Assembly: GCA_047967505.1 (NCBI GenBank)
Contig: CM106538.1
Strand: one strand, 5' to 3'
From: Dipteris shenzhenensis
Taxonomy: Eukaryota
DNA length: 64,000 bases
Shown: piece by piece, positions 4,411 through 37,085 of the stretch
How the letters are laid out: the number at the start of each line of letters is the position of its first letter
Position numbering within the stretch: the first letter of the stretch is position 1
Made by a program: the position numbers and the translations under genes
The notes under the pieces: generated by a model
What the model was told of the DNA's origin: nothing
Database searches by the model: none
The model's input: the letters and a program-made list of their open reading frames with translations, nothing else

Positions 4411-4460
4411 GGCACTAATTACAATCCCAAAGAGGATTTCAGCTATATTAAATTCTGAAA

Positions 4461-5340: not shown

Positions 5341-6833
5341 TAAGCCTTATCCTGCCATGTGGCTTTTTGTGGGAACCTTAGCAAAGAAATGGAAGACGAT
5401 GGCGTGCGATGACGAAGATGCTGCAGAGCTAGTTAGCCGAGGCGGGGAGCTACCGTGAATCGCTGGCTGCAACTCTTGGTTGTCGATGGCCAAGAGCATT
5501 TCATTGTTGGGGAGCAGGTCGATGAAGCTTGGGCTTCACTGTTCGAGCTGCTACTGATCGGTCGTTGGAGATGGCACAAAGAGCTGCAGGAGCCTCAGGT
5601 TGGCTTTGTTGAGGGAGGCGACTCGCTTGAAGGTGGGGCTGTTCGTTGTTGCAAGTCGTGGGCTCTAGATCAGAAGGCGTCAAAGTCTTCTGATGGCTAG
5701 AAGCTGCAAACAAAGTTTCTCATTGAAGGTTGCTGGATGAAAGAGCTTAGCCATTGATGGCTGTGAGCTTGTGAGCACTTGAGCAGTCGAGAGCTTATAG
5801 TGGAGTCCATTCGTTGTGAATGGTTGCTGCCTTCAAATTTGCATGCAAGGCTTGAGTTGCCTTGTAGATGTAGTCGAGTCTCATAGAGCAATGGGCCTTT
5901 GCTTGTGATTGACTAGGAGATGGCTGAACCTTTCCTTGCTTGAACAATGGAGACTCCTCTTTCGCACACGGAAGAAAAGAAAAGGGACCTTTCACTCTCT
6001 TTTTCTTTGAACTCTCTCAAAGAACCTCGGGGGGGTCACTATGTATAAACCCTCTATACCACGTGCGTTCAAGGCATATTTCTAAAATCCCTTATCTGTG
6101 TAAATTTTTCATTAATAAAATGTACCCCTTTTCTATACAAATCTGTAAATTTTTTCCAAAACTATTTTAAATAGTCCCTTATGTATATTTATTTCTGTAA
6201 ATTTTAGAAATAAAAAATATCCTTTTGTTGAACTCACGTGATAGGGTTACATATGATGAGTGACCCCCCCGAGCAAAGAACTCTCAACTCCTCACAAAGA
6301 ACGGAATAAATGGAATGAATAACTCTCAAAGGAGATGACGTAAATCTTTCACAAGAAGAAGATCTCTCTCACAAATCAAGAAACACTCTAAAGAACTCTC
6401 TAGATTTAAAACTAATCTTACATTCTGAAACTAATCTAGGAATGGGAGCAATCCTAGTAAACTACTAATGAGCTAAACTAGAAGAGTTAAACCTATGCTC
6501 TGATACCATGACAAAACATGTGTGCCTCAAGATCTATGGAGTGCTCTAAGGTGGATGGAACATATGTGGAAACATGATGAAGAGAGTGCTCATGACATGT
6601 ATCTCAAGTCAATTAGGTTCTAAGATAGATTAGCTTGGACTTATAAAGAGAATCTTGAGATAGTGCAAAGTGCTTGAGTGATATTACTTCAAATGAACCT
6701 CCCTTTTATAGGTGAGGGTACTTACATCCATTTGCTTGCTCACATGTGGGATATCTCCTCCATTCCATGTGGCAGCTTTCCCTTTACTCATACCTTTGCT
6801 CTACAAGTGCTCATGACACCATAACTCTCAACA
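5340..6833 (-). mobile_element. 5' part of a minus-strand LTR element: LTR 6509-6833, PBS 6497-6508, then non-coding leader
   Basis: GCTCTGATACCA (reverse complement of the tRNA-iMet PBS) abuts a TG...CA bounded segment; left boundary approximate. Confidence 0.75.
6026..6273. mobile_element. 248-bp MITE with perfect 15-bp TIRs and an 8-bp TSD
   Basis: CTCGGGGGGGTCACT / AGTGACCCCCCCGAG; CAAAGAAC at 6018-6025 and 6274-6281; AT-rich interior. Confidence 0.92.
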
Positions 6834-10693: not shown

Positions 10694-12973
10694 GAAGATG
10701 GGTGCCAAATGTCGTCAATTATATATATGAAATTATGCTCAAGTACATGTATCAATGGACTTTAAAAATGAAAGCTTCGACTAATTAAATCATTAGTATG
10801 CACCTACTCATAGTGCTTGGGAAGAACAAAAGTATCACTTTCATCGGTCCAATGTTTGGTGGAGTCTATTGCAAAGAGACCGCTACTATCTTTTCTCACT
10901 GTTGCATGGGGACCATTGTAAGTAGTTCTAAACCATTTTACATCAAGAATGAAAATAGTAAATTGTCTGAAATCAATTTCATAGATGTCGCATATGATTC
11001 CACAATAATCCAACTGTGAGGAGAGAAGATTGGTATCCGAAGCACTTGCTCAGCTATCTTGTGTGAAGTTAGCCATGACTCCATAATCATACATGACTCT
11101 CTTTGAATCGATGCGTTCCACGTGAAAATGTCGTCCATATGACCATAATGCACTGCACTTTTTGTACTGTAAAAGAGCATCATTAGAACAATGAAGATGC
11201 ATCTATTTTATAGCATATATTGCCACAAATAATTACTTAATTATGTCAAGAGGTAAGAAAATTACATGCACCATACATCCAGATGATAACTCTCGCTCGC
11301 GCTTGTTTATTTTCTCTCCATCACGTTCGGCTTTACGTAGAGCCAGTTGTAGCCAATCAAGTGACATGTGAGTAGGGAGAAGAGCCAGATCCCGTGGATA
11401 TGGTTGTGATCGCCTATACATTACTCTGAATCTCGTCCTTGCATTTATTCTTTCTACTTTGGCCACTTCATATTTCTTAATCCACTTCTGCATCTCAGGG
11501 CTATTGAGGATACAAAACTTATTGAATTTCTCCATTTGCTCTTCGCTCATCTTTCTTTCAATCCCTTTTTTTTGGGGAACCTCGCCAACGATGCAATCAT
11601 CATCCTTGTTGTGCCAAGCTTGCGGCATATTGGGATCCGTGGATGCACGAAACTCTGTGATATATACTAATGACTCTTGCACAAGCCATCCCTCTGCCAT
11701 GCTTGCTTCCGGTCTTGCTCTTTGTCTTACAAATCCCTTTAAAGTTTTCATAAACTGCTCGAGAAAAAACATCCATCGACTATGAACGGTACCTGCTATA
11801 GCCACCTCATCAACTATGTGCACAAGCAAGTGGACTTGAGTTGTCATAATGCTCGAGGGAAAGTGCTTCTCAAGCAAGCATACAGCTTCAATGGATTCCA
11901 CCCTAGCCTTCTCAATGCTCGATATAGAGATCTCTTTTTGAGATATCCACCTATTTCACATGTCCATGCATATGTAAGATATTTGAGATATCCACCTATT
12001 TCACATGTCCATGAAGAAAATACATAATGTGATTTGATAGTAAGCATATCTTGACACAATACCACAGATCTTGAATATAGCACTGTTCTAACATCTTCTT
12101 GTAAGCACCCTTTTATTGTAATTGGGAGGATGAACTATCAAAGCAACAATGAAGTCATGTCAACAATATAACATAATAATAATTATACTAACGCATCACG
12201 ATTATCAGTACACTAATTCTAATTAGAATACCTGTAAGACCTTGTGCCAATCATGGGACTTGAGCCCACTAAGCTTATTGTCCTTTGAAAATGCTCCTTT
12301 CAAGCAACGCATGTACCCTGTCGGTGTTTGAAAAGAGGCAATGTCTGCCTTGACCACTGCCTCCTCCCTCGTAGAGAGGATTCACGTTGCCTTCGGGAGG
12401 ACAAATTTTCTGGAAGCATGCACTTGGGGCCACAAACGAGAAGTCCTATTCATAGCATGCAAGTCTTCTTGCACTCCTCTCGAGTCCTTGGAACCAACCA
12501 AGTGTGCCCAAATAGTAGCCCCCACATTCTTGAAGATATGCATGGGATCCAAGAGATGATTGATTTGTAACTGACCCCAATAAGGAAGCTCGTGAAAGAT
12601 CGATAGCCTCTTCATACCAAGAGGAGGTTCCTCTCCATTTGCCCTCCAAGCTTGAATCCAGTCACTTGCCTTCAAATATGATGGTGGTGGATCAAGCTGA
12701 CCTCCACGTGCGAGATGGTCGAGCGGAAGGTATCGAGCATGACCTTCATAAACATTTTTCCTCATATGTTTGGAGTAGTGCGCAAGTGATTTCAGAGCCG
12801 GTCCACAAATAGGACAAGCATGGTACCCTTTTGTAACAAGTCTTGCATGCGTGCATGAATGTGTTAGTACAAGACATGTGTGCAAAAGAGAGTCAAAAAA
12901 GCATAATCCCTCATTATACATGTAAAGACACAACCACGTACCTGTGCACTCTCCTCATCCTGGGTAGTCATGC

Positions 12974-15900
12974 TGTTGAGATATCGAGCTCCACTCGCGA
13001 TATGCCAGGGTGACTGTTGTGCATTTATGTCACTGACCTGTTAGCTGGAGATGCGGTTGGTACACCGCCCACGAATAATAGCTGGATGATAGCTATCCTT
13101 ATCTACTATAGTTTGTGGCTCAGTTAGTATGCCACCTTAGTTAGTTGAGTTTGGTTTGAGACCCACATATAGGGTTCTTCTATTTTCTTTGTACTAGAGT
13201 TCTTTTGGCTTTCACAACTAAGAAGAGGAAAACTGTTTTCAGCCTCCACCTTTGTGTGTATTCCCCCATTTGTGATTGTGAGAAAGCCGCAAATGAGACT
13301 CCTTCCCTCTCTCCCACAATCTTCACATGGTATCAAAGCCTTGTTCGTGGTAAGGAGCTCAAGAAAGCAAGCCAAGTTCGTGGTGTCCTGGTAAGAGGAC
13401 CAGTGTTGCTTTCCTATTTCGAGTTTGGGAGCAAATCTCTGCAGGTAGCACAGCCAGAAGTGCAGGAGTGCACTGTTTCAGATTGAGACGCCCTTCGTGG
13501 TGTGGCGAGAGCGCAGTATATGCTGCGGATAAGGGCGAATCCCTTAGTGACTTTATTTTTCTGATTCGAGGCCGTTTCGGGGCCCGTTTTGAAGGCGGAA
13601 GTTCTTCGCAGGAACTCAAAAAAAAGCCCTGTTTTTTGCTGTGCGACCACTGCGCGGCTAGTTGGTGGAAAGGTGCCGCAGAAATTGCATCGTATGCCTG
13701 TGTGTAGAGATATTGGGAGTTGCAGATTCATGCCTATTGCCTATTGATGCAAAATCGTCACTAGGAAGTGACTGTGTGGTGAAATACCACTCTCGTCGGT
13801 TTTGCAGATCTGCCCGTGTGAGGCAAAAGCTGTGTTTTTTTGCAGTGACAAAATATTTTGCAGTGTTCTGTAATGGCATCTGATTCTCTCTCACAGATTG
13901 TCACTGAAAAGCTTGACAAGAACAACTTCCAGGCATGAAAGTTTAGAATGACGAATTTCTTGATGGGAAAAGGCTATTGGGAATTCATTACAGGAAATGA
14001 AGAAGAACCTGTTGTTCCTAATGTTCCCAGTCAACAGGAAATGCAGGCATTCAAAGGATGGCATGAGAGAGCCAGGAAAGTTATGTACTGGCTATCTATC
14101 AGTATTTCGAACTCCATGATTGTGCATATTCAGGATGCAAATACGCCAAAGGAGGATGGGATACTTTGGCAAAAATGTATAGCACAAATACGCAAGCCAG
14201 GAAAATGCAACTCAAACAGGAGTTGCACAATGTGCAGAGAGAAAATTTGAGCATAAATGACTACCACATGAAAGTGAAGAAAATTGTAGATGCACTTGAT
14301 TCCATTGGGTCGCCAGTGGATGATGATGATTTGGTTTCTGTGACCTTGAATGGTCTAGGAAAGCATTATGCACAGTTCCAGACATCCATTGCCGTCCGTG
14401 AAAACTTTCCCGATTTTGAGGAGTTGATTGCTCTTCTAATTTCTGAAGAGCAGAGAAATGGGGGTGCATCTTCTTCAGCAGGAACTTCAAAAGAAACTGT
14501 CTTCTACTCAAATGCTGGCAGAGGTAGAGGCAGAGGTAGAGGAGGCCGATCTGCAGGCCGTGGTAGAAATCAGAATATGCAGCAAACGCAAGAAAACCAG
14601 TCCTATGCAGGAGGACGTGGTAACTCTAGAGGCAGGGGGAGCCAAAGAGGCCGTGGTGGATGGCAGAGAAGCCAAAATGCAAACAGCAATGTTGAATGCT
14701 ACTATTGTGGCAAAATGGGTCATATGGCTAAAGACTGCTACAAAAAGCAGAATGACATTATGAGTGGAAAATTGCAGCAAGGCAATTATGCATCCTCTAG
14801 TAGACAGGGTGATGACAGAAATGAGCATTTGTTTATGGTGCAGCATATGACAAATTCTGTAACAATTGCACAAGAAAGCAATGATGTGTGGTATGTTGAC
14901 TCGGGTGCATCAAACCACATGACAGGTCACGCTGAATGGATGCAGGATGCAAGAAAAATGAAAAAACCAGGATTTGTAGAGACTGGTGATGATAGTGCAC
15001 ATCCTATTGTGCAGATTGGCAAAATTCCTTTGTTTATGCAGGATGGGAAAAAGAAATACTTGTCTGATGTATTTCATGTCCCGAACATCACCAAGAACCT
15101 GGTTTCTGTTGGATAGATGGTTGAGCAGGGCTTGCAGGTCAGATTTAATCCTCATGGATGCTTTGTTGAGGATATGAAAAATAATGGTCACTTGATAGCA
15201 AAAGGAAAGAAGAAGGGCAGGATGTTTACGTTGGATGCAGACATGCCTGAATTGAGCGCAGCAATGTTTGCACATGGGACCGGTGTAGTTGCAGATATTG
15301 ATATCTGGCACAAACGCATTGGTCATGTTAATATACAGCGACTTAAATCAATGCAAGCCCAAAATATTGTTGCAGGATTGCCAAAATTCAAGGTTGCAGA
15401 AATGCACAAGATTTGTGAAGCCTGTCAATTTGGGAAACAGGCAAGGAAACCTTTTCCTAGGCATGTTCAAGAGAGTAAAAAACCATTGGAATTAATCCAC
15501 TCTGATGTGTGGACTACAAAAGCTGCATCTATTGGAGGCTATCACTATTTTGTCACATTTATTGATGACTTCAGCAGAAAACTGTGGGTGTATTTTATGA
15601 AAAAGAAAAGTGAAGTGTTTGGGCACTTCAAAGCTTCCAAAGCTATGGTTGAAAAAGAAACAGGACTGCAAATAAAATGCCTAAGGTCAGATGGAGGGGG
15701 AGAGTACCTCTCAAATGAGTTTGCAAGGTTCTTGCAGGAGCATGGTATAAAGCAGCAATATTCATGCAGTCATACCCCACAGCAAAATGGAATTGCAGAA
15801 AGAAAAAACAGGCATATTGGAGAGGTGTCTCGGGCTATGCTAAATGAAAAAGATCTACTAGATTATTATTGGGCTGAAGCAGTTGCTATAGCAGTCTATA

Positions 15901-18550
15901 TAATGAACAGGACTCCCACTGCAGCAATACATGGCATGACGCCAGAGGAGATGTATACTGGTAGGAAACCAGATATTTCTCATTTGAAGATTTTTGGTTG
16001 CATTGCTTATGTCCATGTGCCAGATGAGTTGAGGTCCAAGTTGGATCCAAAAGCTGAGAAGTGCATCTTTATTGGTTATTCTCTACAGCAGAAAGGGTAT
16101 AGATGCTATAACCCTTCTACACGTAAGTTCACAGTGAGCAGAGATGTTGTTTTTGATGAGATGAGCAGCTGGTATAAACCAGTAAATGTGATGATTGATG
16201 TAGATGCACAAAATGGTAATGCTGCACAGAATGCACAGCAGCAATCACAGAATATCAGTGGACCTGGAGTGTCCTCTACCAGTGGTTCACATACTTCGCC
16301 ATGGACAGGCAGATTGAGATCAGGAGAATCCCCTCAAAGCAATGCAGATAGTGGTATGCAGGTATCACGAAAAGGAAAAGAGAAGGTAGATCAGCCCATG
16401 TTTGATGTGAATGCAGGTCACTCTTATGTGGATGGTGAATCCAGTGGCTCAGAACAGAGCATTGATGATGAGTTGGGTATTCCTTCTGTTGTTACACCTG
16501 GAGTAAGGAAGACCAGGGATGTTTTGAGAGCACCTAGAAGTGAGCCTATTTTGCGCAGGTCTACCAGGGTTAGGTATCCTGTGGATAGGCTGAAATATGA
16601 TGGATTTACAGCCATTCACTATGCCTATATGGTCAAAGTGATACTGGAACCAGAACCCACTTCTTTTGAGCAAGCCATGGGAAATGAAAAATGGGAGAAA
16701 GCCATGGATGAAGAAATGGATGCCTTGGATGCTAATGCTACATGGGAATTGGTGCCTTTGCCTAAAGGCAAGAATGCAATTGGCTGTAAGTGGGTTTATA
16801 AGATCAAGCACAATACAGATGGTTCTGTGAATAGATACAAGGCAAGATTAGTTGTCAAGGGGTATGCACAGACATATGGCATTGATTATGAAGAAACTTT
16901 CAGCCCGGTTGCAAGGATGGCAACCGTAAGAGCAGCCATTGCTATGGCTGCATCAAAGGGATGGTCTTTACATCAAATGGATGTAAAGAATGCCTTCTTG
17001 CATGGTGATTTGCAAGAAGAGGTATTTATGGAGCAACCAGCAGGCTATGTTCATGCTACTCATCCTGAGTTTGTTTGCAGGTTGAAGAAAGCCTTGTATG
17101 GCTTGAAGCAAGCACCTAGAGCATGGTCTGATAAGATAGGACAATATCTTGTCACTATTGGCTTTCAGATTTCCAAGGCAGATTTCTCACTCTATGCGAG
17201 AAAAACAGAGAAAGGGATTATGCTGCTGGTCATTTATGTTGATGATTTGATCATCACAGGTGATAGTGATGAAGATATCCTTCATGTGAAAATGCTATTG
17301 AGGCAGAAGTTTGAGATGAAGGATTTGGGAGAGCTGTGTTATTTCTTGGGCATTGAGGTGATTAGATCACCAAGTGGGATACAGCTCTTGCAGAGGCAGT
17401 ATGGATTGGACATGCTGTCCAAATATGGGATGACAGGCTGTACGGCTATTTCAGTTCCTTTGGAGCAGAATGTGAAGCTGAGCACAGATGCAGGTGAGCT
17501 TCTAGAAGACCCTACTATGTACAGACGCATAGTAGGAAGTTTGATTTACATGACTATTACCAGGCCAGATTTGAGCTATGCTGTTGGGTTGGTAAGTCAG
17601 TTTATGCAGGCTCCAAGGAAACCGCATTTGGATGCGGCTAGACGCATACTCAGGTATGTGAAGTCCACATTGCAGTCTTGACTATTTTATGAGGCTGGGG
17701 TTCAGATACAGTTGCATGGATACACTGATGCTGATTGGGCTGGTAGTATTTCTGATAAACGATCTACCAGTGGGTATGTGTTCTCTTTTGGGAGTGCTGC
17801 AGTCACTTGGAGCAGCAAGAAACAGCCTACAGTTGCCTTGTCGAGCACAGAGGCTGAGTACAGGGGTGCAGCAATGGCTGCATGTGAGGTAGCTTGGTTG
17901 CATAAGCTACTCTATGATATGCATCAGTCTACAGATGGGCCAGTTGTCATTTATTGTGACAACATGAGCAGCATACACTTGGCAAAGAACCCAGTCTTCC
18001 ATGCTAGAACAAAGCACATTGAGGTGCATTATCACTATGTGCGGGAGAAGGTTTTACTAGGTCTTATTGATCTAGTTTATGTCAGCACAGAGGATCAGGT
18101 AGCTGACATATTCACGAAAGCATTGGGCGCAGAGAAGCTGCGCAAGTTCAGAGACCTGCTTGGTGTGCAGGATTTGGAATTGAGCTCGAGGGGGAGTGTT
18201 GAGATATCGAGCTCCACTCGCGATATGCCAGGGTGACTGTTGTGCATTTATGTCACCGACTTGTTAGCTGGAGATGCGGTTGGTACACCGCCCACAAATA
18301 ATAGCTGGATGACAGCTATCCTTATCTACTATAGTTTGTGGCTCAGTTAGTATGCCACCTTAGTTAGTTGAGTTTGGTCTGAGACCCACATATAGGGTTC
18401 TTCTATTTTCTTTGTACTAGAGTTCTTTTGGCTTTCACAACTAAGAAGAGGAAAACTGTTTTCAGCCTCCACCTTTGTGTGTATTCCCCCATTTGTGATT
18501 GTGAGAAAGCTGCAAGTGAGACTCCTTCCCTCTCTTCCACAATCTTCACA
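12974..18550 (+). mobile_element. Full-length Ty1/copia family A copy 2 (5577 bp)
   Basis: 354-bp LTRs 12974-13327 and 18197-18550 (about 8 transitions by eye); PBS TGGTATCAAAGC 13328-13339; PPT before 18197; TSD CATGC at 12969-12973 and 18551-18555. Confidence 0.97.
13873..18236 (+). pseudogene. Copia gag-pol (Gag-PR-IN-RT-RH) with three nonsense codons and one frameshift
   Basis: MASDSLSQIVTEKLDKNNFQA*KF; CYYCGKMGHMAKDC; WYVDSGASNHM; WHKRIGH...CEAC; LRSDGGGEY; YVDDL; stops near 13936, 15114 and 17679; frameshift near 14157. Confidence 0.95.
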
Positions 18551-20699: not shown

Positions 20700-23160
20700 A
20701 GGAACCCTCTCTTCCCCTCAAACTCTTTCCTTCTTCCCCCTTCTCTTATTCTCTTTTTTCCCCCTTCTCTTATTCTCTCTTTCCCCCTTCTCTATTTTCC
20801 CCTTCTCTCTTTTCTTTCCCTCTTATTCTCTATTTCCGCATAAGCTCATGCATAAGCATAAGCTCATGCATATGCTCATGCTTATGCTCATGCTTATGCT
20901 TCTCTCTTTCCCCCTTCTCTATTTCCCCCTTCTCTCATTCTATATTTTCGCATAAGCTCATGCATAAGCATAAGCATGAGCTTATGCCTATGCTTATGCT
21001 TAAGCATAAGCATAAGCAGAAGCATAAGCTCATGCTTATGCTTATGCATGATCAAAAGCTTATGCTCATGCTTATGCTTGTCTCTTTCTCCCTTCTCTAT
21101 TTCCTCTAACTCTTATTTTCTAGCTCATGCATAAGCATAAGCATGAGCATAAGCTCATGCTTATGCTCATGCATGAGCATGAGCATGAGCTTATGCTCAT
21201 GCTTATGCTTCTCTCTTTCCTCCTTCTCTCATTCTCTATTTCTGCATAAGCTCATGCTTATGCTTCTCTCTTTCCCCCTTCTCTCATTCTCTATTTCCGC
21301 ATAAGCTCATGCATAAGCATAAGCTCATGCTTATGCTCATGCATGAGCATGAGCTTATGCTCATGCTTATGCTTCTCTCTTTCCCCCTTCTCTATTTCCC
21401 CCTTCTCTCATTCTCTATTTTTGCATAAGCTCATGCATAAGCATAAGCGTGAGTTTATGCCTATGCTTATGCTTAAGCATAAGCTATGCTTATGCTTAAG
21501 CATAAGCATAAGCATAAGCATGAGCTTATGCTTATACATGAGCATGAGCTTATGCTCATGCTTATGCTTGTCTCTTTCCCCCTTCTCTATTTCCTCTTAC
21601 TCTTATTCTCTATTTTCGCATAAGCATGAGCATGAGCTTATGCTTATGCTTATGCTTATGCTTAAGCATAAGCATAAGCATAACCTCATGCTTCTATTTC
21701 CTCTAACTCTTATTCTCTATTTTCGCATAAGCATGAGCATGAGCTTATGCTTATGCTTATGCTTATGCTTAAGCATAAGCTCATGCTTATGCTTCTCTCT
21801 TTCCCCCTTCTCTATTTCCTCTAACTCTTATTTTCTAGCTCATGCATAAGCCTAAGCATGAGCTTATGCTTATGCTTAAGCATAAGCATAAGCATAAGCA
21901 TAATCTCATGCTTATGCTCATGCATGAGCATGAGCATGAGCTTATGCTTCTCTCTTTCCTCCTTCTCTCATTCTCTATTTCGACGTAAGCTCATGCATAA
22001 GCATAAGCATGAGCTTATGCTTATGCTTATTCTTCATGCATGAGCATGAGCTTATGCTCATGCTTATGCTTCTCTCTTTCCCCCTTCTCTATTTGCTATA
22101 ACTCCTATTTTCTAGCTCATGCATAAGCATAAGCTCATGCTTATGCTCATGCATGAGCATGAGCATGAGCTTATGCTCATGCTTATGCTTCTCTCTTTCC
22201 CCCTTCTCTCATTCTCTATTTCTGCATAAGCTCATGCATAAGCATAAGCATGAGCTTATGCTTATTCTTATGCTTAAGCATAAGCATAAGCATAAGCTCA
22301 TGCTTATGCTCATGCTTATGCTTCTCTCTTTCCCCCTTCTCTCATTCTCTATTTCTGCATAAGCTCATGCATAAGCTTATGCTTCTCTATTTCCCCCTTC
22401 TCTCATTCTCTCTTTCCCCCTTCTCTCATTCTCTATTTCCCCCTTCTCTATTTCCCTCTTCTCTCATTCTCTATTTTCGCATAAGCTCATGCATAAGCAT
22501 AAGCATGAGCTATGCTCATGCTTATGCTTCTCTCTTTCCCCCTTCTCTATTTCCTCTAACTCTTATTTTCTATTTCTGCATAAGCTAGGCATGAGCTTAT
22601 GCTTATGCTTATGCTTAAGCATAAGCATAATCATAAGCTCATGCTTATGCTTATGCATGAGCATGAGCTTATGCTCATGCTTATGCTTATGCATGAGCAT
22701 GAGCTTATGCTCATGCTTATGCTTCTCTCTTTCCCCCTTCTCTATTTACTCTAACTCTTATTTTCTATTTTGGCATAAGCATAAGCATGAGCTTATGCTT
22801 ATGAATGAGCATGAGCTTATGCTTCTCTCTTTCCCCCTTCTTTCATTCTCTATTTCCTCTAACTCATATTCTCTATTTCCGCATAAGCTCATGCATAAGA
22901 AAATGAGACATATGCTCATTCTTATGCTTATGCACGAGCATAAGCAGAGTAGACATATGCTCATGCATAAGCATGAGCATATGTCTCTTTTTCCCCCCTT
23001 CTCTTATTCTCTCTTTCGCCCTTCTCTCTTCTTCCTCTTCTCTCCCTCTTCTTCCTTTTCCTCCTCTTCCTTTCCATCTTCTCTCCTCTTCTTTCCCTCT
23101 TTCCTTTCCCTCTTCTTCCTCCTCTTCTTTCCCTCTTTGCCTATGCCTATGCTTATGTTT
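20700..23160. repeat. Compound satellite: GCATAA/GCTTAT/GCATGA/GCTCAT hexamer runs alternating with CT-rich blocks, inside a putative intron
   Basis: Directly visible; bounded by GTAAGT (20609) and TTAG|ACATG (23200). Confidence 0.9.
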
Positions 23161-23202
23161 GTTTTTTTGTTTTTTGTTTTCATGTTTGTGTCTATGTTAG
23201 AC

Positions 23203-24872
23203 ATGGGATCACGTCGCTCATCCGATGAGTACGGACAGCCTCGTAGGAGAAGAGCTCATGATCTTTATGCTCTAGAGGACTTTGATTTCTCTTAGGTGAC
23301 TACCCCGAGGACTACCCCTGGTCCGCTGACTCCTCTTGGACCTAGCACTACGACTACCCCTGGTTTGACTCCTCTTCCACGTAGCACTGCGACTACCCCT
23401 CGAGGAACTCCTTTGCTAGCCGCGCATGGCTTTGTCAGGAGTCCCGACGAGTTTGTAGCGCAGATGAGCGATGAGGAGGCAGCGAGATTCTTCTCTCTAC
23501 TATCTCAGAGGACCTCAGCAATTCCCTCCCCTACACCGACGGGTGGATGTACTGCCCAGCCGTGCCCTCGTGCCCCTTCGACCGAGGGGTCATCACCTGC
23601 GCATGCCTCTTGTAAGGGAAGGAAGAGTAGGAAGGGCGGCTCATGTTGTGCTGACTCGGGAGATGTAGACGAGTCAGCACACTCACGTTCCTACAGGTCT
23701 CCACTTGGTCCAGAGACACAGTATCAGTCAGGTCCCTTTCCCTCTCCTACTCCCACTGCTACTCCTCGCTCCGGAAGTGCTCGCGCAGCTTCCACTCCTT
23801 CTGACTCTGCTACCTCAGTCCTCCTTACTCATCAAGGGATCTCTCCTATCAAATCACAACTGCCGGAGAGATAATAGAAGATAGAAATGGCAAAGAAGTG
23901 ATGGCCACCATGAGGAGGTTGATGAGCCATCACTTCAAGAGCGGCATAAATACCGATTGGCTATATAAAGATGGCCAAAAGAAGCAGGCGGTCATCGATG
24001 AGTTAAAACAAAAATACCCTAACCTACCAAATTGGGAGTTTAATGATGATTATATGCAAGAGCGCATGGGTTTGGTCTTGAAGCATCGTAGATCAACCTT
24101 GCGTACTTCCATCACAAAGGGGTTCGCTAAACCCAGCTGGGTAGAAAAAGCTAATTGGAAGTTCTTCAAGAAGCAGAATAGGGACCAGCTCGAATTGTTC
24201 GAGGGTCAGAGGAGGGCTGTGAAGAGACGGCTGGACGTCATAGGTACTTTGCACTTTGGTGTAGGTGGATGGTTGGCGTTCGAGGCAACCGTGGTAAGTC
24301 TACTTCTTCTCATTTAATGTATTGTTCTATTTGTTTTACTACATATTATATGCACTTTAGCTAACTCTAACTCTCGTAAATTGGATCCACAGCAAGCTGC
24401 AATGGGTCGTCTTCCTATAGATGCAGAGACACGATGCGCATTTCGGATAGGAACAAAGCCATGGTTTATTGAGCAAGAGGCAATGGGAGTGACAGTCAAT
24501 TGGGCTGAGGTGGCTACTTGCATGGTATAAGTCTACTCCTACTTGTAATCTCACTTTTTAAATTGTTTTATTCTTTAAGTTCCAATCTAATTTTCGATTT
24601 ATATGGTTCACTCTTAGGGCCAAAGCTCAAGCGTCCCTTCATTAGAGGCGAGCGATCAACAGGGTCAGGGATTAGACGCACATGACGAGGATGTGGAAGA
24701 AGAACCAGCTGACAAGGACCAAGGAACAGGCCAACAAGACGAGGACGATTCGGATTCCGATGAGTAGTAGTAGTAGTAGTGGTAGTAGCATTTTCTTTGC
24801 CCTGTATGTCATTTTGTATATCCGCTCGTTTGAGCAATTTTGTATCGCCCTTTTGAAAGATTAATTTTGTTA
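23203..24872 (+). pseudogene. CACTA second gene (TnpA-like by position), multi-exon with nonsense codons
   Basis: ATG 23203, Pro/Ser/Thr-rich segment, then helical region WEFNDDYMQERMG...KPSWVEKANWKFF; GT-AG introns; lies inside the CACTA termini. Confidence 0.6.
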
Positions 24873-25309: not shown

Positions 25310-27152
25310 ATTGAATATTTGCTAGTAGAAAAAAATATTCCAATCAGTCAATGTAAAGTTGATCATAGTATTGTAAAGCAAATGGCATCAGCTTTACCGT
25401 TAGCTAAATAGAAGGCTTGGGCACACAAATGGGTGAAGGTAGAAGAGGATGGATCTGAAGTTACTCCTTGTGTCATGCAAAATACATTCCGAAAAATAAG
25501 CATGCATATGCACAAAAAATCATCAATGAGCACACTCTTATAAAAGCAAGAACTTTGAACAGGTGATTTTTTCCATACATGAGCTAATTTCAAAGTCTAG
25601 AAAGAGTGTAGAGTGCAAGGGAGTTTCATTGAATGACTTCTTGTTCGATGACACCGCTTGGGAGAGGCCTCAACTTTACTGTGTCTATGAAATATCACTT
25701 GATGATATCTATCAACTCCTTGACAGAATATTACATACCACCATTGGTAGAGTGGGACTATGTAACATCATCATATTTACTGATAAAGAAGATAAGGAAA
25801 AAATGTCTGCTACCCTAGAGAAACAATATGGCAATGAGCTTAAGCTTAAGATTTGCAATGGTATATAGTCAAGAAAGAGGGACAAGGGAGAATGTGGTCT
25901 CAAAATACAGAGTCTTGAAACCTTTTTCTTGTGCATGAAGATCCCTTACAATGATCACTCTTTACAAAAGAACAAAAGAGGGAATGTAAAGAGGTTGCAA
26001 CTAATGCTCGAAGAGCATGGAGCTCCAAGTCTCCTCCACCGTAATGCCAATCACTATGAAAGGCCAACAAAAAGTGTTGATCTTTTAATTAGTATGATGG
26101 AATTTTGGCTACCTCCTGAATGGGAAGTCACATTGTGTCAAATGGGGCATTTGTTTGAAGCTCTTATTAGAAAAGGACACGCTATAAATATTATTGAGAG
26201 CCCTACTTGCTTGGAAAACCTTTGTATAAAATGATGCTCATGTATGTGTGGGTGTGTGGATTTGTATGTGTGAGCGCATATTTCTATACTATGGTCTACA
26301 CCCATTGTTGGGCACTGATGACGTTAATGGGGATGTCATAGTAGCTAGTCCCTACTATGCATGATGGAGTTTATGGTTTTCAATCTTATGAGTGACTATC
26401 GTGAGTTGAAACTACACTATATTGTGTTTTTAGAGGATGAGTTTGGGAATATTCCTGGATTCATCTAGGTATATGCTTGGAAAACCTTGATACCATGGAT
26501 GCTCTCACAATGAAGTATGATAAAATAGGTCTGATCTCACATGAAGAGAATGATGACATAGAGATGGCCATGTATGATGAGAGCAAGAAAGAGGATGAAA
26601 ATGCTGAAAGCTATGGATATGATAGTGAGGACACCAACGATAGTGAGGAAGCTAACAGAGATGGATATGGCACTAACCCTGCCTGAGAAGGCTACATAAA
26701 AAGACCACAAAGATATCTAAAGGTATAAAAACTTGTCCTTAATTTTCTTCATTTATTTAAAAATCCTTTTTTTAATTATAATTACCTATATCGTGGCAAA
26801 CAGATAAGATCATACTGATAGAGAAGCGGTTTGCTTTACTTATTTTTGGGTGTTATGCTAGAAAGCAATGCTCAAGAGCTGGCTAATTTTAGACATATAC
26901 TGCCTGGGCACTAGCTTGTGGTGTAAAGGATCCCCTCTCCTTGGAAGCTTATAGAAAGCATAAGCTCATTAGGAATCGAGAGCCTTCTTTGGTGGCCCTT
27001 CCTGACAAATTGGTTGAAGAGCAAACTGCGAGCACAACAACTCTTGCACAAGATGATAAGAGTTCAGTTGCTCCTTAGCTCAAGGAAAAAAGGTCTCCAA
27101 TCAAAGTCAAAAGAAAGATTCCAAGCAAATTTGGCAAACCATTGGAAGAATA
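25310..27152 (+). pseudogene. Decayed unknown gene with a weak N6/N4 DNA methyltransferase-like motif and an acidic region
   Basis: Co-oriented ORF pieces 25563-25868, 25929-26234 (PTKSVDLLISMMEFWLPPEWEV...EALIRKGHAINIIE) and 26477-26686. Confidence 0.4.
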
Positions 27153-27399
27153 GCATGTATGGCATTGTATATTTTACAAGATAGAAGTAAGGTTGAATTG
27201 TGAGAACACTGTCATTTTAGAATGCCTTAGTTATGTTTATGTGTATTTGTGACAAAGACAATGTACATTTTGAAATAGAAATATATGTAGTACATTTCAA
27301 ATATTTCAATGGTTGCATACAATGACTTCTTATGAATGAAAGATCCAAGTCTTGGTCATTGCAAAAAAAAAAATTATTACATTTGATGACACCAATTGA

Positions 27400-30090
27400 T
27401 GATCAAGGTTCTATCTACCCATTTGTGGTTTACAAATTCTTTGAGTGTCTCCATTGAGCCTGTCTTTGTGCTACATTTGAGTTCTCCAAAATCTGCCTCC
27501 TTCTTTCCTTTTGAGCCAACCTGAAAGCCAACTTAACCTGTGATGTGTTAAATTTCTTCTTGGCTTGAAGTCTTTGTAGTATTCCTCATCGATAGAACCA
27601 CTGGAACACTTCTTTTAAACTATTGGCTTTCTGTTTTCCTCCAAAATGTTGTGTATGTCTAAAGAATGCATTTCGTGCCATGTAGTGTGATTTCTCCATT
27701 CCCTATGTGGACCAAATTGTAGGGTATCCCTATTTTTTTACAAAGAAAGGAAGGTGATTGTAGATTATATGTTGTTTTGATACATAGGCAAGTGGGCATT
27801 AGAATATATAAAACTAAGATTGTTTGCTTTAAAAAAAACATGCACAAAAATAGGATATTGTTCTTACCATGTTATGAGTGATGTTACATGTTGTCCAAGC
27901 CTCTTTCATTGCCTTTCCAAAACTCTTTACTGCTTCTTCAAATGCTTGTTGATCATTTTTGCTAAAGGTGGCTTCGTCACAAAAAACAAAAGGTTTATCT
28001 AAGCATTTCCACACTTCTGCCTTGACATCTCTTGCCAATCCATCTGCCTGATGATCTTTGATAGCATTGTGGACTTTTCCCCACAAGTTATACTTTATCC
28101 TTGATGTGAATGTTGTTTTACTGCCATTTTTTTTTTCTCTGATGAGACAAAAATCTTCTAGCCTTTACTCCACCAATAGATGGCTTGATAGGAACATCTT
28201 TTCCATTTGTAGATTTTTAAAGATCTTTTGTAATATGTACATCTCCTCCATGGAGACCAATTTCTGATAGCACTAATAGCATTGCTTCTAACGATTGTAG
28301 TGCCTCTTTTCTTCTGCTCTTAGGGGGGCGAAGTTTCCATGCAAATCCAATATATAGGAAAACAAGTTTCTCAATGATCCTACATAATGCATGCAATGTA
28401 CAAATGTGAACATTGCATAATGAGATCTCAAGAACTGTTTTGAAATTTTTATCTACTTTATCTCTGTTGGGTGCTCTTTTCCACCATTTAGAATCTAGGA
28501 CATGCGCTGGTTCGTTTGCAGTATAAGCAAGGAGATTTTGAGTTACCCCCTTTGCTTATATTGAACATACACTTCAGTGTCTTCAGGTCACCTGCCATAT
28601 GCCATTCAATTTGAAAATCACCCTTCCTTGGAACATGAAGATGGCGTTTGACTCTTGATAATTGATGGTATATCTATTTGATGAAATACCCAATAAAGTA
28701 CTGCATGGTCCTCATCCTCAGTCTTCACCTGTAACCTTCACCTGTAACTTAAAATCACAGGTTTGCAAGATATATGATATAAAATTTATTACATTTCGCG
28801 CAAGAAGGCGATAGTTTACATACCTCAAATGCGCCCAACCACCATATGTGCTTTTCCAATTGGACATTGAAGTACTTTGAGCTAGACTTTGTGATCAATT
28901 GATCAAGTGCTCGATTCATCAAAGTGATAGAAACTCTCTCTATCTTTTTTTCCTTGACGATTTCACACTCATCAAGCTTCACAACAAACTTCAAAACTCC
29001 TTTACATTCTTCAAATGTGATACTATAGAACTCAACCATAAGTCTCTGCAATTGTTCAAGATCTACAAAAACATTATTCCAAGCATTATATGTAGTGCTT
29101 CCCTTTTCACTTTCATATACACTTTCGATATAAAAGTACTGTCCAATAAACTTATCAATTTCTTGGTTGAGATGACCTCGTTCCTTCCACACTTGTGCTG
29201 GTGTTGGTAACAACACACGTTTTATACGTTGATCTTTTATTGTTGATGACACAACTCTAAATATTGAAGCATATCCCTTTCTGCTCACTCCGCTCAAATC
29301 AAGAGCCTCTTGAATTTTCGTGACATCAGCTTTACTTTCCGATACAAAGTCTTCCAGCACTTCACGTTTTACCTTCTTAAACATCTTTTCCTCCATCATG
29401 TTCTTTGCAACAATAGTGGAGACTAAACCCTTCATTTGTTTGACACGAATTAAATTAAGATCAATGTTTTCTTTCTCAGGTCCTAAAATTTTTTTGCAAC
29501 AAGTAAACTTTGCAATAATTGCAAGATAGACACATACATACAAATACAATGGCTAAACAAGATGTACTCTTACCTTGCTTTTTATACTGTACGCTTACAT
29601 CCTCCAGTGCCAGCTTTCAACTCCGCAATGTTTTGAATTCTCTTGCTTCCTTTTCTCTCTCCAAGAATGGTTCTCTTCATTCTTGCTCTCCTTAGCTCAT
29701 TCTTTGTCTTTGAATGCTCTTCTATTTCCCTTTGTAGCTGCTCTTTCAAGTCTGAATCTATCGACATTTCTTGGTCCTTCTCCATTCTTTTGCGGACATA
29801 CAATGTCTTGTACATTTTCACAGTTGAATATTGAGTCAAAATGTATCCATACATTCCATTGTTCCCGTCACCCACAAACCTCAAGAGCGTTGTCAGATTT
29901 AAAAATGGAGGGCTCGAATTTCTCAATGGACATTCTGGGTAAATCTGTCCGTCACACCATAAGTCGATATGTTGGGAGCCTGCTCTTCTCATGTTTTCCT
30001 TTTGCGCAGCATGCACAAGCGGAACCTTTCCTCTTTTCTATAGCAGTGCATAAAATGTCCCTTATGTATCCATGAGAGAATGCCCCTTAT
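27400..30090 (-). pseudogene. RAG1/Transib/Chapaev-like DDE transposase, spliced and frameshifted
   Basis: Motifs in order: KFVVKLD (D at 28971-28973); WHMAGDLKTLKC (D at 28587-28589); KSPCLYC; VHICTLHALCRI; NITHNM|HIIYNH; WST*GMEKSH (E at 27694-27696). Confidence 0.75.
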
Positions 30091-30239: not shown

Positions 30240-33200
30240 GGTCATCCTCTTGAGGCTATGATGCTCTAAGAGTACATTGAGTCTCTACTTCTTGTGTAGA
30301 TCGTGTACACTGAGTTTCTACTTCTGGTGCAATCTGTAACAAGCCTAGTAGGGTTGAGCTCAAGATAGACTCAATCTCTTCCTCCTTCACAAGATGTGAT
30401 GTTGTAGATACACATTTAGTCTCTACTTCTTGTGAAGGAAGAATGCATTGAGCCTCTACTTCAGGTGGAGACTATAATGCTTTTGCTATAGACTCATTCT
30501 CTTCTTCCTTTGCAAGTTACAACTCTACTTGAGGTTGTGATGCACAAGGAGACTAAATTGTCTCTTGTTTTTCTTTGGCTCCCTCGACTTCTTCATTGAC
30601 ATCATGTTGTACCCCAATGGTAGTAGTTAGGTCAGTCTTAGCCCTAAAATCTTGTAGCTTGAGCTTTGTATATGATTCTATTGAGACATGTTCAAAAATG
30701 TCATTGAGGAACAACTTGAAGTTGTAGGCAACTCTCCACCCAGTGCTAAATCTATCTTTCTACTCCACTATGATACATGTCTGGAAATTTGGTTGGTCTT
30801 GATGTTGCCTGACTTTTCTAATAATAGATACTAACCTGTTTGCAGACATGTCCATCATGACATAGGAAAAAGTGAATTTGTGTAGTAAATAGTAAGATGC
30901 ATGTTCATAATAATATGATAAAGAACATTTACTTGAACACCGAGTCGTGAAAGCCTCTAACTGAATTGAGAAACCAACAATGGTTGTCATCAAGATCCCA
31001 TACTATCAGGCTCCAATGTAAGCTACATGACCAATAAAGAAAAAATTTATTGATACAATATTAAGCATTAATTGACACAATATTACAAATAAAAGAGTAA
31101 AAGCAAGGTTGAGATGATACTTACTTCTCATAATATGGCATAAAGATGACTAGCATGCCATCCAAGTCTAAAGATTGTAACCTTATACAAACATCATCTA
31201 TCGTCTTCTTGGTATCACTAAGTACAGCTGAAAGGAGAAAATTGAGCATATACACATGATTTTGTATTGATTTATGAAAGTGAGATATAACCATATTGCA
31301 GCAATAAATAAAGAAATGCTAGTAGCAGATTGAATCAAAATATTGAAGTATCAAGCCAAGAGAAGTTCATGTCAAACCTAAGGATGGAAATCATGACTTT
31401 ATCATTAGCCTCTTTCAAAGGGTCGGAGAGGATTGTAACTTCCTCACTACCAAATGTCAAAACCTAAGGTTGCTGGATAATGATAACCCTGACATCAAAA
31501 GAGCTACCCATTTTGTCCAATGCAGTGATTACATTAGGACAACTTATGGGTGTAGCAGCCAATGTTTTCTCTAGATGCTCCATAATGTTATCAATAAATT
31601 ACTTAATGGTAGATGACATAAATGTGTGTAGATGCAAGTCTGTATATGTTGACAATGAGGTTTCACCGTTGCTCAAATTAAAAATTTTAGCAAGTAGCAA
31701 TAAGTATTTATATCCAACTTTGCACCCAAAACTATGGCCATCATGTTGCTTCAATGTTGGGCATGTTACATACTCTATTTGATCTTCAAAGTCACCTTCA
31801 AATTGCATAAGTGCATCTATAGCACCTACCAACTTCTGAGCTGATCCACACATCATAAGAGATAACATAAACGAATGTGCGCATTGTATATGATGCATCT
31901 CATGGAAGTAATTGTGACACAGGTAGGTTATACTTACTCTGACACACTACCATGGACAGATGCTATTGAATTGACAAAGAAACATTGCTTGGCTAAGATG
32001 TCCATAGTCACCAAGCTTCAATACAAACTGCATTACCAATTAAGAATAATTATTATTTGACATAATTCTCCACGATGTAAGAGATAAGCTAAGTAAGGAT
32101 TGATACTCACTCCTCATAATATGCAGTAAAGATAACTCGCGCCTCAGTCAAATCAACAGGTTGCAACCACTTGCAAACATCATCTATGGTCTTCTACTTG
32201 CTACTAAGTACATTAGAAACAAGAGGATTGACCATATATGCACATCTATGTATATATAGGGGAAGCTGTTCTAAAACCATACTGGAATAAAAAGAAAAGA
32301 ATATTAGTCCATTTGATCCAATGGAAATACAAAGCATAAAGTTAAGAAAAAGTTTGTGTCAAAAAACCTGAGGATGGCTATTATGACTTTGTCCACCTCT
32401 TTCTTGGAGTTTAAGAAAATGTCCTCTTCATCAAATAGAAAAGTAAGAGGTTGTTTTCGAACTTGAAACCTAGCTTGAAATGACTTCCCCATCTGCTGCA
32501 AGGTATGATTATTTTCTAGACCGATCCGATGGATAGCCAGAGTAGCTTTGTTTTCTTAAGACGAGCTTCCTATATTCTCTACTCTAGCTATGTCCACCTC
32601 ATCCTCCTTTCCCTCCCCCTATAAAAACATGAAATAATTATGAGATTATCACCCAAAACTTTTAAGAAACACTTGAAAAAATAAGTAAGAGCAACCCCAT
32701 CGTTGCTAAGCAATTTGCTAAAAAACAGTTTCTTCACAGCAGATAGGTCTTTAATATAATGAGAAAGGCTTGATAGTTTACCAAGCCCAGGAATTCTACT
32801 TCCAGCCGCCCTCAGGAGGAATGTGTCATCTTCAATGAACAACTGCCATATGCAAAACACACTTTGATTTAAAACAAACCATCAAATTGCATATCTAAAC
32901 CCCAAATGCAAGAAAGGTAGGTTCCTTACCTCAATATTCTCACCTTTCTCTAGTATATCATCGTTAAATAAGGAGATACCCATCTCCTCCTTCCCCTCGG
33001 AGTTGTCACTGATATCCAAGCTTGTTGTGAGGTTCATCCTGCTTGGGTTTCCTGGAAGATTGTCTCATTCACCTCTTCATACATTTTGGCTTGCTCAAAA
33101 TAGATGGAAAATGCTTCCGAAGCATCGAATTTGTCCTCCAACTCTAACAAAGGATCGTCCTCAATCCTTACTTCCTTGTCAACCCTACTAGATTGTGCAA

Positions 33201-35000
33201 TAAGGCAATTGCATAATCTTCTCTCAAATTAAATAGGCATTGTACGTAATACAACAAGACATCCTCTTTTCCCTCAATATTGAATGAGGGAAGAATGGGC
33301 ATAGTGGGGTCAGAGCTCTCAGCCTCCACGTCATCCACTATGACAGCATCTCTTAGGGTCTCGTTTTTTAAGGCCGCTAGGTCCAATTTTGCAACTGCAA
33401 GCTCTTCCTCTATCGAGTTGATCTTCTCTTCCACTTCTGGTAGATCTGACTTTTCCTATGTTTCTTCTTCCTCATTGGTATCCTTTGGGTCCTCAATTGA
33501 TCCATCAGTATAGTGTACATACATGGCAAATGCAAGTGCCTCTTCAAGTATTTTGCAATTGCCCTTGTGTACAGTGCATATTCCCTCATGACAATCTTCA
33601 AAACTGTCAAACACCTTGTGCATTTGATACATCATCCTGTCGTTTGTAGCAGCAATGTCTTTGACATGTACAAAAGTCTTGCTGTTTGACAACTTTTGAT
33701 CCTTCAACTGTAAGCTTGTGGAAGGATTCATACATCTCTCCAAGAAAATCCTTATGATGTGTCAGAAGAGACTACAAATCCAGCTCCTTATTGAACATAT
33801 CATGGTATTTGTGATAGTACAGTTCTCATTCTGACTTCTATAGGAATTCAAAGAACAGCAGTTGGGGTGACTTCTTTTCCTCCTCCTCCTTTCCCTTACC
33901 AACTGATTGTCCACCTTTGTCTGAACCCTTGTCATTGGGCTTTTTCTCTTCACTGCATCATACAAAATCAAAAAATGAGTCTTGCACATATAGCTAAAAA
34001 GAAATAGAAGCACTCATACATAAATTCTTACCAGAAGATTCCTCCTCCTTTACAGCATAAGCTGAGAGGTCAATGGTCTTCCTGACAGGTCTTGGTGCAT
34101 CACTTGCATCACCTATTTGGTTAGCTCCTCCTCTTTGAAAGTTTTCAGAAAAATGTGATATGACTGTCTTTATAATTAAATAGACTAAAATCATGTTTTC
34201 TAGGCAAAAGTTCTATTGATGCAAAAACATCATGTCCAAAGAAAATTCAGGTGAATCTGCAAGATAGTTGTCTTGATCATTTAAAAGACGAAGAAGATGA
34301 CTTCTAGCTGATGTAGTAGAATTAGATAGATCAAGAATACAATTGGAAAGGTAGATCAAGACTCTGGTGTATTTAAGTACCTGTAGCATTTCTCTCCATG
34401 GATCTTTGCACAAGTATAGGTAGGTGGGGATGATGATGGGAAAAAATCAAGGTCTAATGTATTGTCCATATGAAAATGAGGAAGAAGATGAAGATTCAAA
34501 ACTGTTGAATGGATGGAGAAAAGTGAAGATAAGAGTGCGATATGGGGGAGAAAAACAAAGAACAAGCTCAAATCGTGTTTTTGAGCAAAGATAGTGAAGC
34601 CTACTCTAATGAATCAGTTTGGACTCTACCATCCTCCTAAACCCTACAATGCATATGAAATGTGCTCGAAAAAACAACTCATAGAGTTCCTTTTAGAGAA
34701 AGCTATGGAATGGTCATTTCACCTTACTAATAGGAAAAACCAATGACTTGTGACAGATTGCTCACCTGGGCTTTTGTGTATCTCTGGAGCTAGAGCTAGG
34801 GAGGTGTGAGATGGACCTGGGGAGGTTGTGGCTAGATCTATAATGGGTGGTGGAGCTGGTGAGGGAGGTTGGATTTGGAGTTGCAATGGGACTCTGTGAT
34901 GGAGGTGGTGAGGTAGTGAGGTTGGATCTGGAGTTGGAGCTAGTGAGGTAGTGGGGTTGGAGCTGGAGGTGGTGAGGTTGGAGGCAACTAAAACTAGAGA
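30240..35000 (-). pseudogene. Multi-exon gene with two tandem Ulp1/peptidase C48-like domains
   Basis: DDVCKWLQPVDL...VIFTAYYEE|LY*SLV...FVNS|...QHDGHSFG (about 31680-32450) and DDVCIRLQSLDL...VIFMPYYEK|LHWSLIVWD...FLNS|...*KDRFSTGW (about 30690-31480); matching intron positions; gene ends approximate. Confidence 0.7.
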
Positions 35001-36055: not shown

Positions 36056-37085
36056 ATGGCAAGAACCAAAGCAACAGCTAAAAGGAAAGGAAAAGGACCA
36101 GACATTGCAGGGGCTGCCACAGCTCCATCCAGGTCTAAATCTTCAAAGAAGGGGAAGCCTGTGCACATGCTAGCAAGGAACAAGAAGAAAAGAGTGAGCC
36201 AAAGCAGATCTATCTTGATGGAGATTAGGAAGGCTTAGAAAGCCATAGGATATGAAGTACCCATGGCACCATTCGAGAGGCTGGTCAGAGCAGTATGCAT
36301 GAACTGGCATGTGGACTTTAGATGGCAAAGGACTGCACTACTTGCTCTCCAAGAAGCTACTGAAGAGTGGCTCATAGAGTTTTTCATGGACACCATGATG
36401 GTAGTAGCACATGCACACAAGGTCACCATCATGAATAAAGACATCCAAACACTTGTCAGGGTCAAATATAGATATGACAAGATCCTTAATGTAGAGGATT
36501 GGGATGATCTGAAAATGAGGGATATCTTGTTGATACCTCCAGCCAAGAAACCTAAAGATGATGGATTCAAGGTTGTCGAGGTGTTTCACCAACTTCATAC
36601 CAGAGGCAAGGCTGCCTATGAAGAGTCCCTCCGGGAAAGAGTCAAAGAAACAATGTCTGTCTTGCAATCCCAGACATTAGTGAGGATGGTGCAAATTCAC
36701 CAGAATCTCCTACAACTTGGACCAAGGATCAGAGTAGCCATCCAGACTGTGAATGATGACATGACCTAGGACTTGACAGAAGACTACATCATGGCTTTAG
36801 CACAAAAAGAAAAACATGTGACTTGCATAATCATCCAAAACAGCAGGAGGAGTCAATGTAGGAGGAGTGGATGCAAGAGGAGGCAGTACCGATGGAGGAT
36901 GTGTAGCAGTAGGATCCACAGCAGGATGTAGAGTAGCTAGATCCACAGCAAGATGTACAGCAGTAGGATCCATAGCAATAGTAACCTAAGCAGCATGTGG
37001 AAGATTCTCACAGGAGTCTCCACTGCAAAAAAGTCAATATAGAGATTCTGAGCAATAATAGAAAAATAGATGATGCTTGTAATTA
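36056..37085 (+). pseudogene. Divergent histone H3-like protein with a long C-terminal extension and nonsense codons
   Basis: MARTKATAK...LMEIRKA*K...PFERLVR...DFRWQRTALLALQEATEEWLIEFFMDT...HAHKVTIMNKDIQ matches the H3 fold without gaps; TAG at 36236-36238 falls where H3 has Gln; Q/E-rich tail follows. Confidence 0.9.

Follow-up and report, generated by a model that had tools for sequence, protein, structure and literature searches.

Does this plant DNA hold the remains of a transposase built like the core of RAG1, and if so, to which transposon lineage does it belong? The question is raised by a stretch of 64,000 nucleotides from Dipteris shenzhenensis (assembly GCA_047967505.1, contig CM106538.1), here called the window, in which the stop-to-stop list of open reading frames (ORFs) contains a chain of frame pieces spanning 27.4-30.1 kb on the minus strand; an earlier note on this DNA had taken the region for a spliced, RAG1/Transib-like DDE (Asp, Asp, Glu) transposase. 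Transib and RAG-like transposons, through which the descent of RAG1 is reconstructed, are known for the most part from animals and from a small number of protists. We conclude that the region is very probably the defunct gene of a cut-and-paste DNA transposon with a RAG1/Transib-type DDE core, and that it comes from a lineage of its own within the CACTA-Mirage-Chapaev-Transib (CMCT) clade, on the side of RAG1, Transib and Chapaev. This lineage probably represents a member of that known clade that had lacked annotation, and fold and clade are the level at which our interpretation finds support.

With eight family proteins as queries, tblastn detected just one copy in the window, on the minus strand from 27439 to 30052 and spread over three minus frames. 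The motifs from which the earlier note argued are all present on this strand, and in the order that it gave: a motif search located KLDECE, with the first catalytic Asp, at 28962-28979; AGDLKTLKC, with the second, at 28569-28595; the C(2)C pair of PCLYC at 28518-28532; the C(2)H motif HICTLHAL at 28385-28408; ITHNM, followed by GTA, at 27868-27882; the H(4)H motif HIIYNH at 27754-27771; and GMEKSH, with the catalytic Glu, at 27685-27702.

The gene has to be assembled from pieces, all on the minus strand. Its N-terminal exon (29585-30052), which reads HIDLWCDG... and includes a coiled-coil stretch, matches residues 19-167 of the relative P0001 at 40% identity (tblastn), is frameshifted near 30037 and ends CKRTV before a TAA at 29582-84. 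The DNA-binding and pre-RNase H region follows at 28758-29552 with strands 1-3 and KLDECE (family profile A2, E=4e-73), and the exon closes with ...GAFE and then GTATGT. The start of the next exon (VKTEDEDHAVLYWVFHQ...) lies at 28621-28737 (profile A5, E=6e-8); its frame differs from that of the adjoining piece at 28491-28673, which carries AGDLKTLKC and PCLYC (A5, E=3e-23; A2, E=1e-21), placing a frameshift inside 28621-28673, and another comes right after (~28520). HICTLHAL and a helical insertion occupy 28220-28555 (A2, E=3e-37), ending ITKDL before a TAA at 28217-28219. Two further pieces, 28121-28216 and 27832-28164 (A2, E=8e-9 and 4e-28), make up 27832-28216; a frameshift in the poly-A run at 28121-28164 separates them, and they end with ITHNM and then GT. 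The intron-like gap that follows (27772-27867) has its 5' GT, while its 3' side reads CAA, without an AG, and the last exon (27589-27771) carries HIIYNH and GMEKSH (profile A4, E=2e-11 for 27589-27702). The matches of the family profiles to the window pieces lie far beyond chance.

Together with the two TAA codons, a TAG at 27730-32, a TAG at 27703-05 and a TGA at 27586-88 bring the in-frame stops to five; the second TAG is the residue left as 'x' when the earlier note read WSTxGMEKSH. With at least four frameshifts and three intron-like gaps besides, it is clear why that note had to remove introns and frameshifts by hand. The intron-like gaps coincide with frame breaks in the related loci L001, L006 and L010. 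The break at the last gap falls after residue 175 of the relative P0079 in 11 loci (L001, L002, L004, L005, L006, L010, L011, L013, L015, L016 and, less cleanly, L017); in L007, L008 and L012 an open frame continues through the position of this last intron. Because stops and frameshifts are combined with gaps that match the breaks of relatives, the window copy is a pseudogene of an intron-bearing transposase gene; it can no longer make protein and is also rearranged. The description of a spliced transposase therefore holds for the intron-like gaps, but not in the sense of a working spliced gene. Neither a megablast comparison of the region with a plasmid collection nor a Pfam search with eight window pieces gave a match, in the latter case above threshold.

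We characterized the family through its less damaged relatives. A word-based search with a 265-residue piece first returned five proteins of 490-783 residues (E 1e-36 to 2e-47), unnamed and without a Pfam domain, and one cluster comprises 29 near-identical members, mostly fragments (138-789 amino acids, one of 76). Across 1.84 billion representative proteins, a six-member profile matched 649 proteins at E<=1e-3, of which 360 reached E<=1e-10 and 88 reached E<=1e-30, again mostly fragments; we attribute this fragmentation to gene callers working on an intron-bearing, often decayed eukaryotic repeat. Indeed, gene models of the family end at ...ITHYM, which we ascribe to a conserved intron at that point, and members that keep the last exon read on as THYMHILYAH-P...GSLGxWxxQGMEKSH. 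The family is thus large, and it has neither a Pfam family nor an informative source name: none of 16 family proteins scored above threshold in Pfam.

Several diverged copies are found among 17 related metagenome loci, two of which hold the whole core in one open frame (P0178, 699 residues; P0179, 527 residues); a search for longer homologues based on P0079 found none. In a sub-branch formed by P0099, P0130 and P0120, with long open frames and acidic tails, D, D and E are retained along with the C(2)H motif; as discussed below, it would be a zinc-less version of the core. As a separate observation, two of the loci are 99.7% identical over 2365 bases (L002 712-3076 and L005 1-2363) but part from each other close to where the transposase coding region ends; this point may mark a boundary of the element or reflect a variant of the assembly.

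To what fold does such a protein belong? AlphaFold models of two relatives, P0099 (60-row alignment) and P0178 (57-row alignment), reached predicted local distance difference test (pLDDT) scores of 77.4 and 81.3 and predicted template modelling (pTM) scores of 0.78 and 0.81, respectively. Searched against the PDB with Foldseek, each model gave 49 matches at E<=1e-3, and every listed row from rank 1 to rank 49 was RAG1, the lancelet RAG-like protein BbRAGL or the insect transposase HzTransib, with best E values of 7.7e-13 (P0099) and 1.2e-11 (P0178); rank 50 was Hermes for P0099 (1.2e-3) and the P element transposase for P0178 (0.046). VIA-align, a method independent of Foldseek, gave the same order among 48,161 representative chains. 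The three best RAG1 chains scored Z of 21.4, 20.3 and 20.1 with P0099 and 19.8, 19.3 and 19.2 with P0178, followed by BbRAGL (18.9 and 19.0), HzTransib (14.8 and 13.9), the P element transposase (10.7 and 10.4), ISCth4 (9.1 and 7.9) and Hermes (8.1 with both). Retroviral integrase cores also align, across residues 200-638 of P0178.

These alignments are not confined to the catalytic domain. To the three best RAG1 chains, 449-476 residues of P0099 and 456-493 of P0178 were aligned, and the matched span of RAG1 runs from ~425/480 to 1008, meaning that the whole core is covered, beyond the RNase H domain alone. In both models the complete architecture (dimerisation and DNA-binding, pre-RNase H, RNase H, zinc-binding insertion and C-terminal domain) superposes on solved RAG1 and Transib structures. 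The RAG1/Transib-like core proposed by the earlier note is borne out in that structure searches with intact relatives put RAG1, RAG-like proteins and Transib alone on top.

The residues expected to do the chemistry fall where such a core would need them. In the P0178 model, D207 lies in strand 1 (residues 199-210), D304 directly after strand 4 (293-303) and E581 in the C-terminal helix (578-594), an arrangement that is, in the model, the canonical one of RNase H-like enzymes; the window relic retains KLD, GDL and GME at the three catalytic positions. P0178 further has C324 and C327 as its C(2)C pair and H557 and H562 as its H(4)H pair. Mouse RAG1, as described in the cited part of PMC4914335, uses D600, D708 and E962 with C727/C730 and H937/H942; its spacings of 108 (Asp-Asp), 19 (Asp-Cys) and 20 (His-Glu) compare with 97 between the two Asp residues, 20 from the second Asp to the first Cys and 19 from the last His to the Glu in P0178. 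On this comparison the spacing of C(2)C and H(4)H is nearly that of RAG1, and the alignment of catalytic and zinc residues that the earlier note had proposed is recovered in P0178: D/D/E, C(2)C and H(4)H sit on the expected elements at RAG1-like spacing. Both pairs are present in the two members that have both regions in one frame (P0178 and P0179), and both are missing in all three members of the sub-branch of P0099, P0130 and P0120. This joint loss fits one shared zinc site, so that the C(2)C after the second Asp and the H(4)H before the Glu can be read as a single predicted zinc site.

At the level of sequence the signal is faint. With profile A4, built from five sequences, zebrafish RAG1 came top among 177,635 PDB sequences at a non-significant E=0.66, through two colinear stretches, family QSE...F.V.KEDHxxL and T.YM......GSL..W..Q.ME, in which the family's last motif aligns residue by residue with RAG1. 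The Pfam RAG1 model PF12940 likewise matched at the last motif in two of the 16 proteins below threshold (E=0.003-0.004; 15.8-16.1 bits against a cut-off of 25); PF12940, PF26100, PF26101 and PF26104 were above their curated thresholds in none of the 16 family proteins and none of the eight window pieces, and PDB sequence searches with profiles A2 and A3 and with P0178 singly did not return RAG1. In a protein-language atlas, P0178 lay close to RAG1 clusters (0.94-0.95) and to clusters carrying DUF1280 (16%) or RAG1_RNase_H (38%) at 0.95, the RAG1 clan accounting for eight of its ten best named matches; for P0017 the top match was DUF1280-carrying clusters (0.94).

Is this a mobile element? One DNA run, X1, was listed with related sequence (share 0.07), and no RNA run was listed. 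At 80% likeness, 1304 X1 contigs fall on window positions 22-36 kb, and their summed depth, which is not a copy number, stands at 1700-3355 over 27604-29471 and 250-680 up to 30405, with 0-50 in most flanking bins. The region is therefore a high-copy repeat in run X1. Adjoining the relic, 26203-26669 has a summed X1 depth of ~45,000 and is a separate, very high-copy repeat.

A second, conserved gene accompanies the transposase. Locus L010 contains, at 3464-5347 on its minus strand, a frame of 627 residues (ORF2) arranged tail-to-tail with the transposase; the homologue in L001 occupies 3258-4884 on the minus strand (28% identity over 342 residues, E=4e-24), and an ORF2 of ~620 residues stands tail-to-tail with the transposase in four loci, L001, L004, L006 and L010. 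The window holds relics of it on both sides of the transposase: its N-terminal and middle part, containing a stop, at 33189-33855 on the minus strand (tblastn with L010 ORF2 161-394, E=1.5e-10); a next part at 32639-32857, minus strand, whose match is weak (residues 2-75 of the C-terminal piece of L001 ORF2, E=0.003) and whose portion down to 32650 is spanned by an X1 contig; and its C-terminal part, with two stops and convergent with the transposase, at 26788-26985 on the plus strand (L010 ORF2 550-615, 44% identity, E=4e-9). In the X1 contig (record 2, 1670 bases), 33262-32650 in reverse is followed immediately by 26785-27666, which makes ORF2 contiguous again and convergent with the transposase. 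Compared with this contig and with the tail-to-tail order in L001 and L010, the segment 26785-32649 is inverted in the window, and one breakpoint splits ORF2; the inversion is either real or an assembly error. From these arrangements, ORF2 appears to travel with the transposase in one sub-lineage, the window copy included.

ORF2 had no match in Pfam, Kelch and PHD included, so nothing links it to RAG2; its profile found among PDB sequences only coatomer zeta, at a non-significant E=0.03; and a search for homologues returned two clusters. A complex of ORF2 with two transposase exon products, predicted without alignments, scored 0.00 and gave no verdict.

Taken together, an intact protein of this family would be a DDE transposase built like the RAG1/Transib core, its catalytic domain interrupted by a large insertion that would carry one zinc site, with C(2)C closely following the second Asp and H(4)H closely preceding the Glu. 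If it works as RAG1 and Transib do, the enzyme would nick at the transposon end, let the 3'-OH so released form a hairpin on the flanking DNA and, in the last step, join the excised ends into a new target.

Several points weigh against so specific a reading. The models were built from relatives and not from the window's own broken product. To our knowledge no CACTA, Mirage, Chapaev or Lanisha transposase structure has been solved, and fold searches therefore cannot separate these four from RAG1 and Transib. No sequence search was significant against RAG1 or Transib, the atlas scores are leads and not tests, and the hairpin mechanism is drawn from analogy only. The order of the motifs, which the earlier note had offered as evidence for RAG1/Transib, is indeed present, but it is weaker evidence than thought because it is common to the whole CMCT clade: Kojima 2025 (PMC12730594, in the part cited here) describes it across the clade (the motif definitions of Yuan and Wessler 2011 being cited here second-hand from PMC12730594 and PMC4079192), and the window itself contains a further example. 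This is a CACTA/EnSpm relic at 11233-12954 on the minus strand (DUF4218, E=2e-24; Transposase_21 sub-threshold), which reads CPIC, DPMH, HLLVH and then W...E, with H(3)H.

The ends of the element weigh in the same direction. Elements of the CMCT clade, a name given by Kojima, have CA...TG ends and 2-5 bp duplications according to that author (PMC12730594, cited part); in the window and in ten related loci (L010 twice) we found no terminal inverted repeats or target-site duplication, a search limited by the decayed, rearranged window copy and the short related contigs. It comprised a repeat search of 20-38 kb, blastn-short of the flanks, local alignment of 26.7-27.8 against 29.95-30.9 kb and self-searches of the loci, and brought up nothing besides matches due to chance, a TG microsatellite and, at 20.9-22.7 kb, an unrelated block of repeats. 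For lack of these ends our placement stops at fold and clade. Within the clade, the H(4)H spacing, weak Pfam matches to RAG1 only, the failure of the family profiles to match the CACTA relic and the atlas results suggest the RAG1/Transib/Chapaev side, as leads and not as proof.

The most serious alternative, which we hold to be possible though clearly the lesser prospect, is that the family is the already named Lanisha superfamily, in which case the lineage would be known and only the RAG1-like fold added. Lanisha comes from the moss Ceratodon purpureus (deposited element GenBank MT647524, cited in PMC8245031), and its curators, in the cited section of that paper, could not place it in an existing superfamily; it was published in Repbase Reports 2020, as cited in PMC12730594, and later placed in the CMCT clade. 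The present family is likewise plant-associated, lacks a Pfam model and shows the motif grammar of the clade. Kojima, however, describes Lanisha as 'showing similarity to EnSpm' (PMC12730594, cited passage), whereas our family has no similarity at the level of hidden Markov models to the window's EnSpm/CACTA relic, and none of the 16 family proteins matches Transposase_21 or DUF4218 at E<=10.

The same null result bears on the idea that the family is a divergent CACTA/EnSpm-Mirage member whose likeness to RAG1 reflects only the fold shared by the clade, which we consider improbable. That idea draws on the CACTA relic, with its identical grammar, and on the lack of a solved CACTA structure, which leaves fold searches blind to the distinction. 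Against it, the family has H(4)H, as do RAG1 and Chapaev (the latter from the cited part of PMC4079192), where the window's CACTA relic has H(3)H; Transposase_21, DUF4218, DUF1258 and DUF1280 (PF06918) are all absent from the 16 proteins at E<=10, the DUF4216/Transposase_21/DUF4218 domains taken as the mark of CACTA/EnSpm have no Pfam match there, and the family profiles do not match the CACTA relic. Among the atlas rows shown, RAG1 and DUF1280 families appear but Transposase_21 does not. That the family is instead a domesticated host gene, of which the window holds a dead paralogue, we regard as very improbable: some relatives do have long open frames and conserved introns, and no transposon ends were found, but the X1 depth over the gene runs to thousands, where the majority of flanking bins have tens at most (1304 contigs in all); a 29-member near-identical cluster and 649 representatives are mostly fragmentary; and the window copy is decayed and lies amid copia and CACTA debris.

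A far bolder proposal than the transposon lineage favoured here would have plants carry an unrecognised, superfamily-level RAG1-like transposon lineage with a full-size RAG1-type zinc insertion, in which ORF2 partners the transposase in a two-subunit recombinase, a plant analogue of RAG1-RAG2 that arose independently or very early, with a family that may have kept its activity wherever intact copies abound; we think this unlikely.

The remainder of the window is of a different nature. Copia-type genes (gag, integrase, RVT_2) lie on the plus strand at 1078-1530, 9092-10027 and 14067-18236, with one open frame of 854 residues. Low-complexity direct and inverted repeats fill 20700-23300 (arms of 90-128 nt, 71-89% complementarity); the long frames there translate to simple repeats, and 21250-21849 and 22375-23295 have no Pfam match. 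A frame with a core histone fold occupies 36239-36769 on the plus strand (Pfam Histone, E=1e-18).

The window copy itself is inert, ordinary genomic debris, and matters only as a marker of its family. What it marks is a large plant-associated family, missed by ordinary sequence searches, whose predicted core superposes on RAG1 better than does that of insect Transib, and annotations of plant genomes probably mislabel such elements or leave them out. The family offers comparative material on the evolution of the zinc-binding insertion and catalytic core, on the relationships among the CACTA, Chapaev and Transib lineages, and on whether partner genes were recruited more than once. The view of the earlier note that such transposases are known mostly from animals and microbial eukaryotes needs amending, as plant relatives are already in print: Tao 2022 (PMC9435367, cited part) lists 39 Transib-like plant proteins, and Lanisha (PMC8245031, cited part) is from a moss. 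Apart from the papers cited, the literature we surveyed on plant Transib yielded only mentions in repeat tables, supplementary lists lying outside this scope, and that on Lanisha and DUF1280 contained no description of the present protein family.

How, then, does the family compare with the systems around it? CACTA/EnSpm, the common plant lineage, belongs to the same wider clade and shares the motif grammar, while the window's CACTA relic differs in its histidine spacing and has no profile similarity to the family in either direction; Transposase_21 and DUF4218 are mostly plant families in the cited section of PMC3985635, and these matches, with the copia elements, are the features of the window's sequence that speak for a plant source. 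Lanisha, compared here by its published description only and from the cited parts of the papers given above, is alike in being a plant cut-and-paste lineage that shares the family's clade and motifs. Chapaev has C(2)C, LH and H(4)H as its hallmark (PMC4079192, cited part), and all three occur in the window relic (CLYC, CTLH, HIIYNH) and in its relatives. DUF1280 corresponds to Chapaev transposases and was grouped with RAG1 by Majorek 2014 (PMC3985635, cited section); the family differs in that none of the 16 proteins has a HMMER match to PF06918, the likeness being one of atlas features only. In the cited parts of these papers, Chapaev is described from animals only, with 3-4 bp duplications and CAC...GTG ends.

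The hallmarks of Transib are a 5-bp target duplication and terminal inverted repeats that begin CAC... and resemble recombination signal sequences (PMC1131882, cited part), and Kapitonov and Jurka 2005, in the same part of that paper, did not find it in plants. HzTransib (PDB 6pqn and related entries), the enzyme of a DNA transposon, shares the family's fold (Z 13.9-14.8; Foldseek E 7e-8 to 5e-5) and motifs, though it matches the family less well than RAG1 does. RAG1 and BbRAGL are the best structural matches, with D, D and E on the same elements and near-identical C(2)C and H(4)H spacings; the structural alignments show only 12-14% identity, none of the Pfam RAG1 domains exceeds its threshold, and the RING and N-terminal region of RAG1 was not seen in the family. 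RAG1 is a single-copy immune gene and the family a plant repeat with introns. In one further respect they are alike: RAG1 and RAG2 stand tail-to-tail, and the family's transposase has a second gene in the same orientation.

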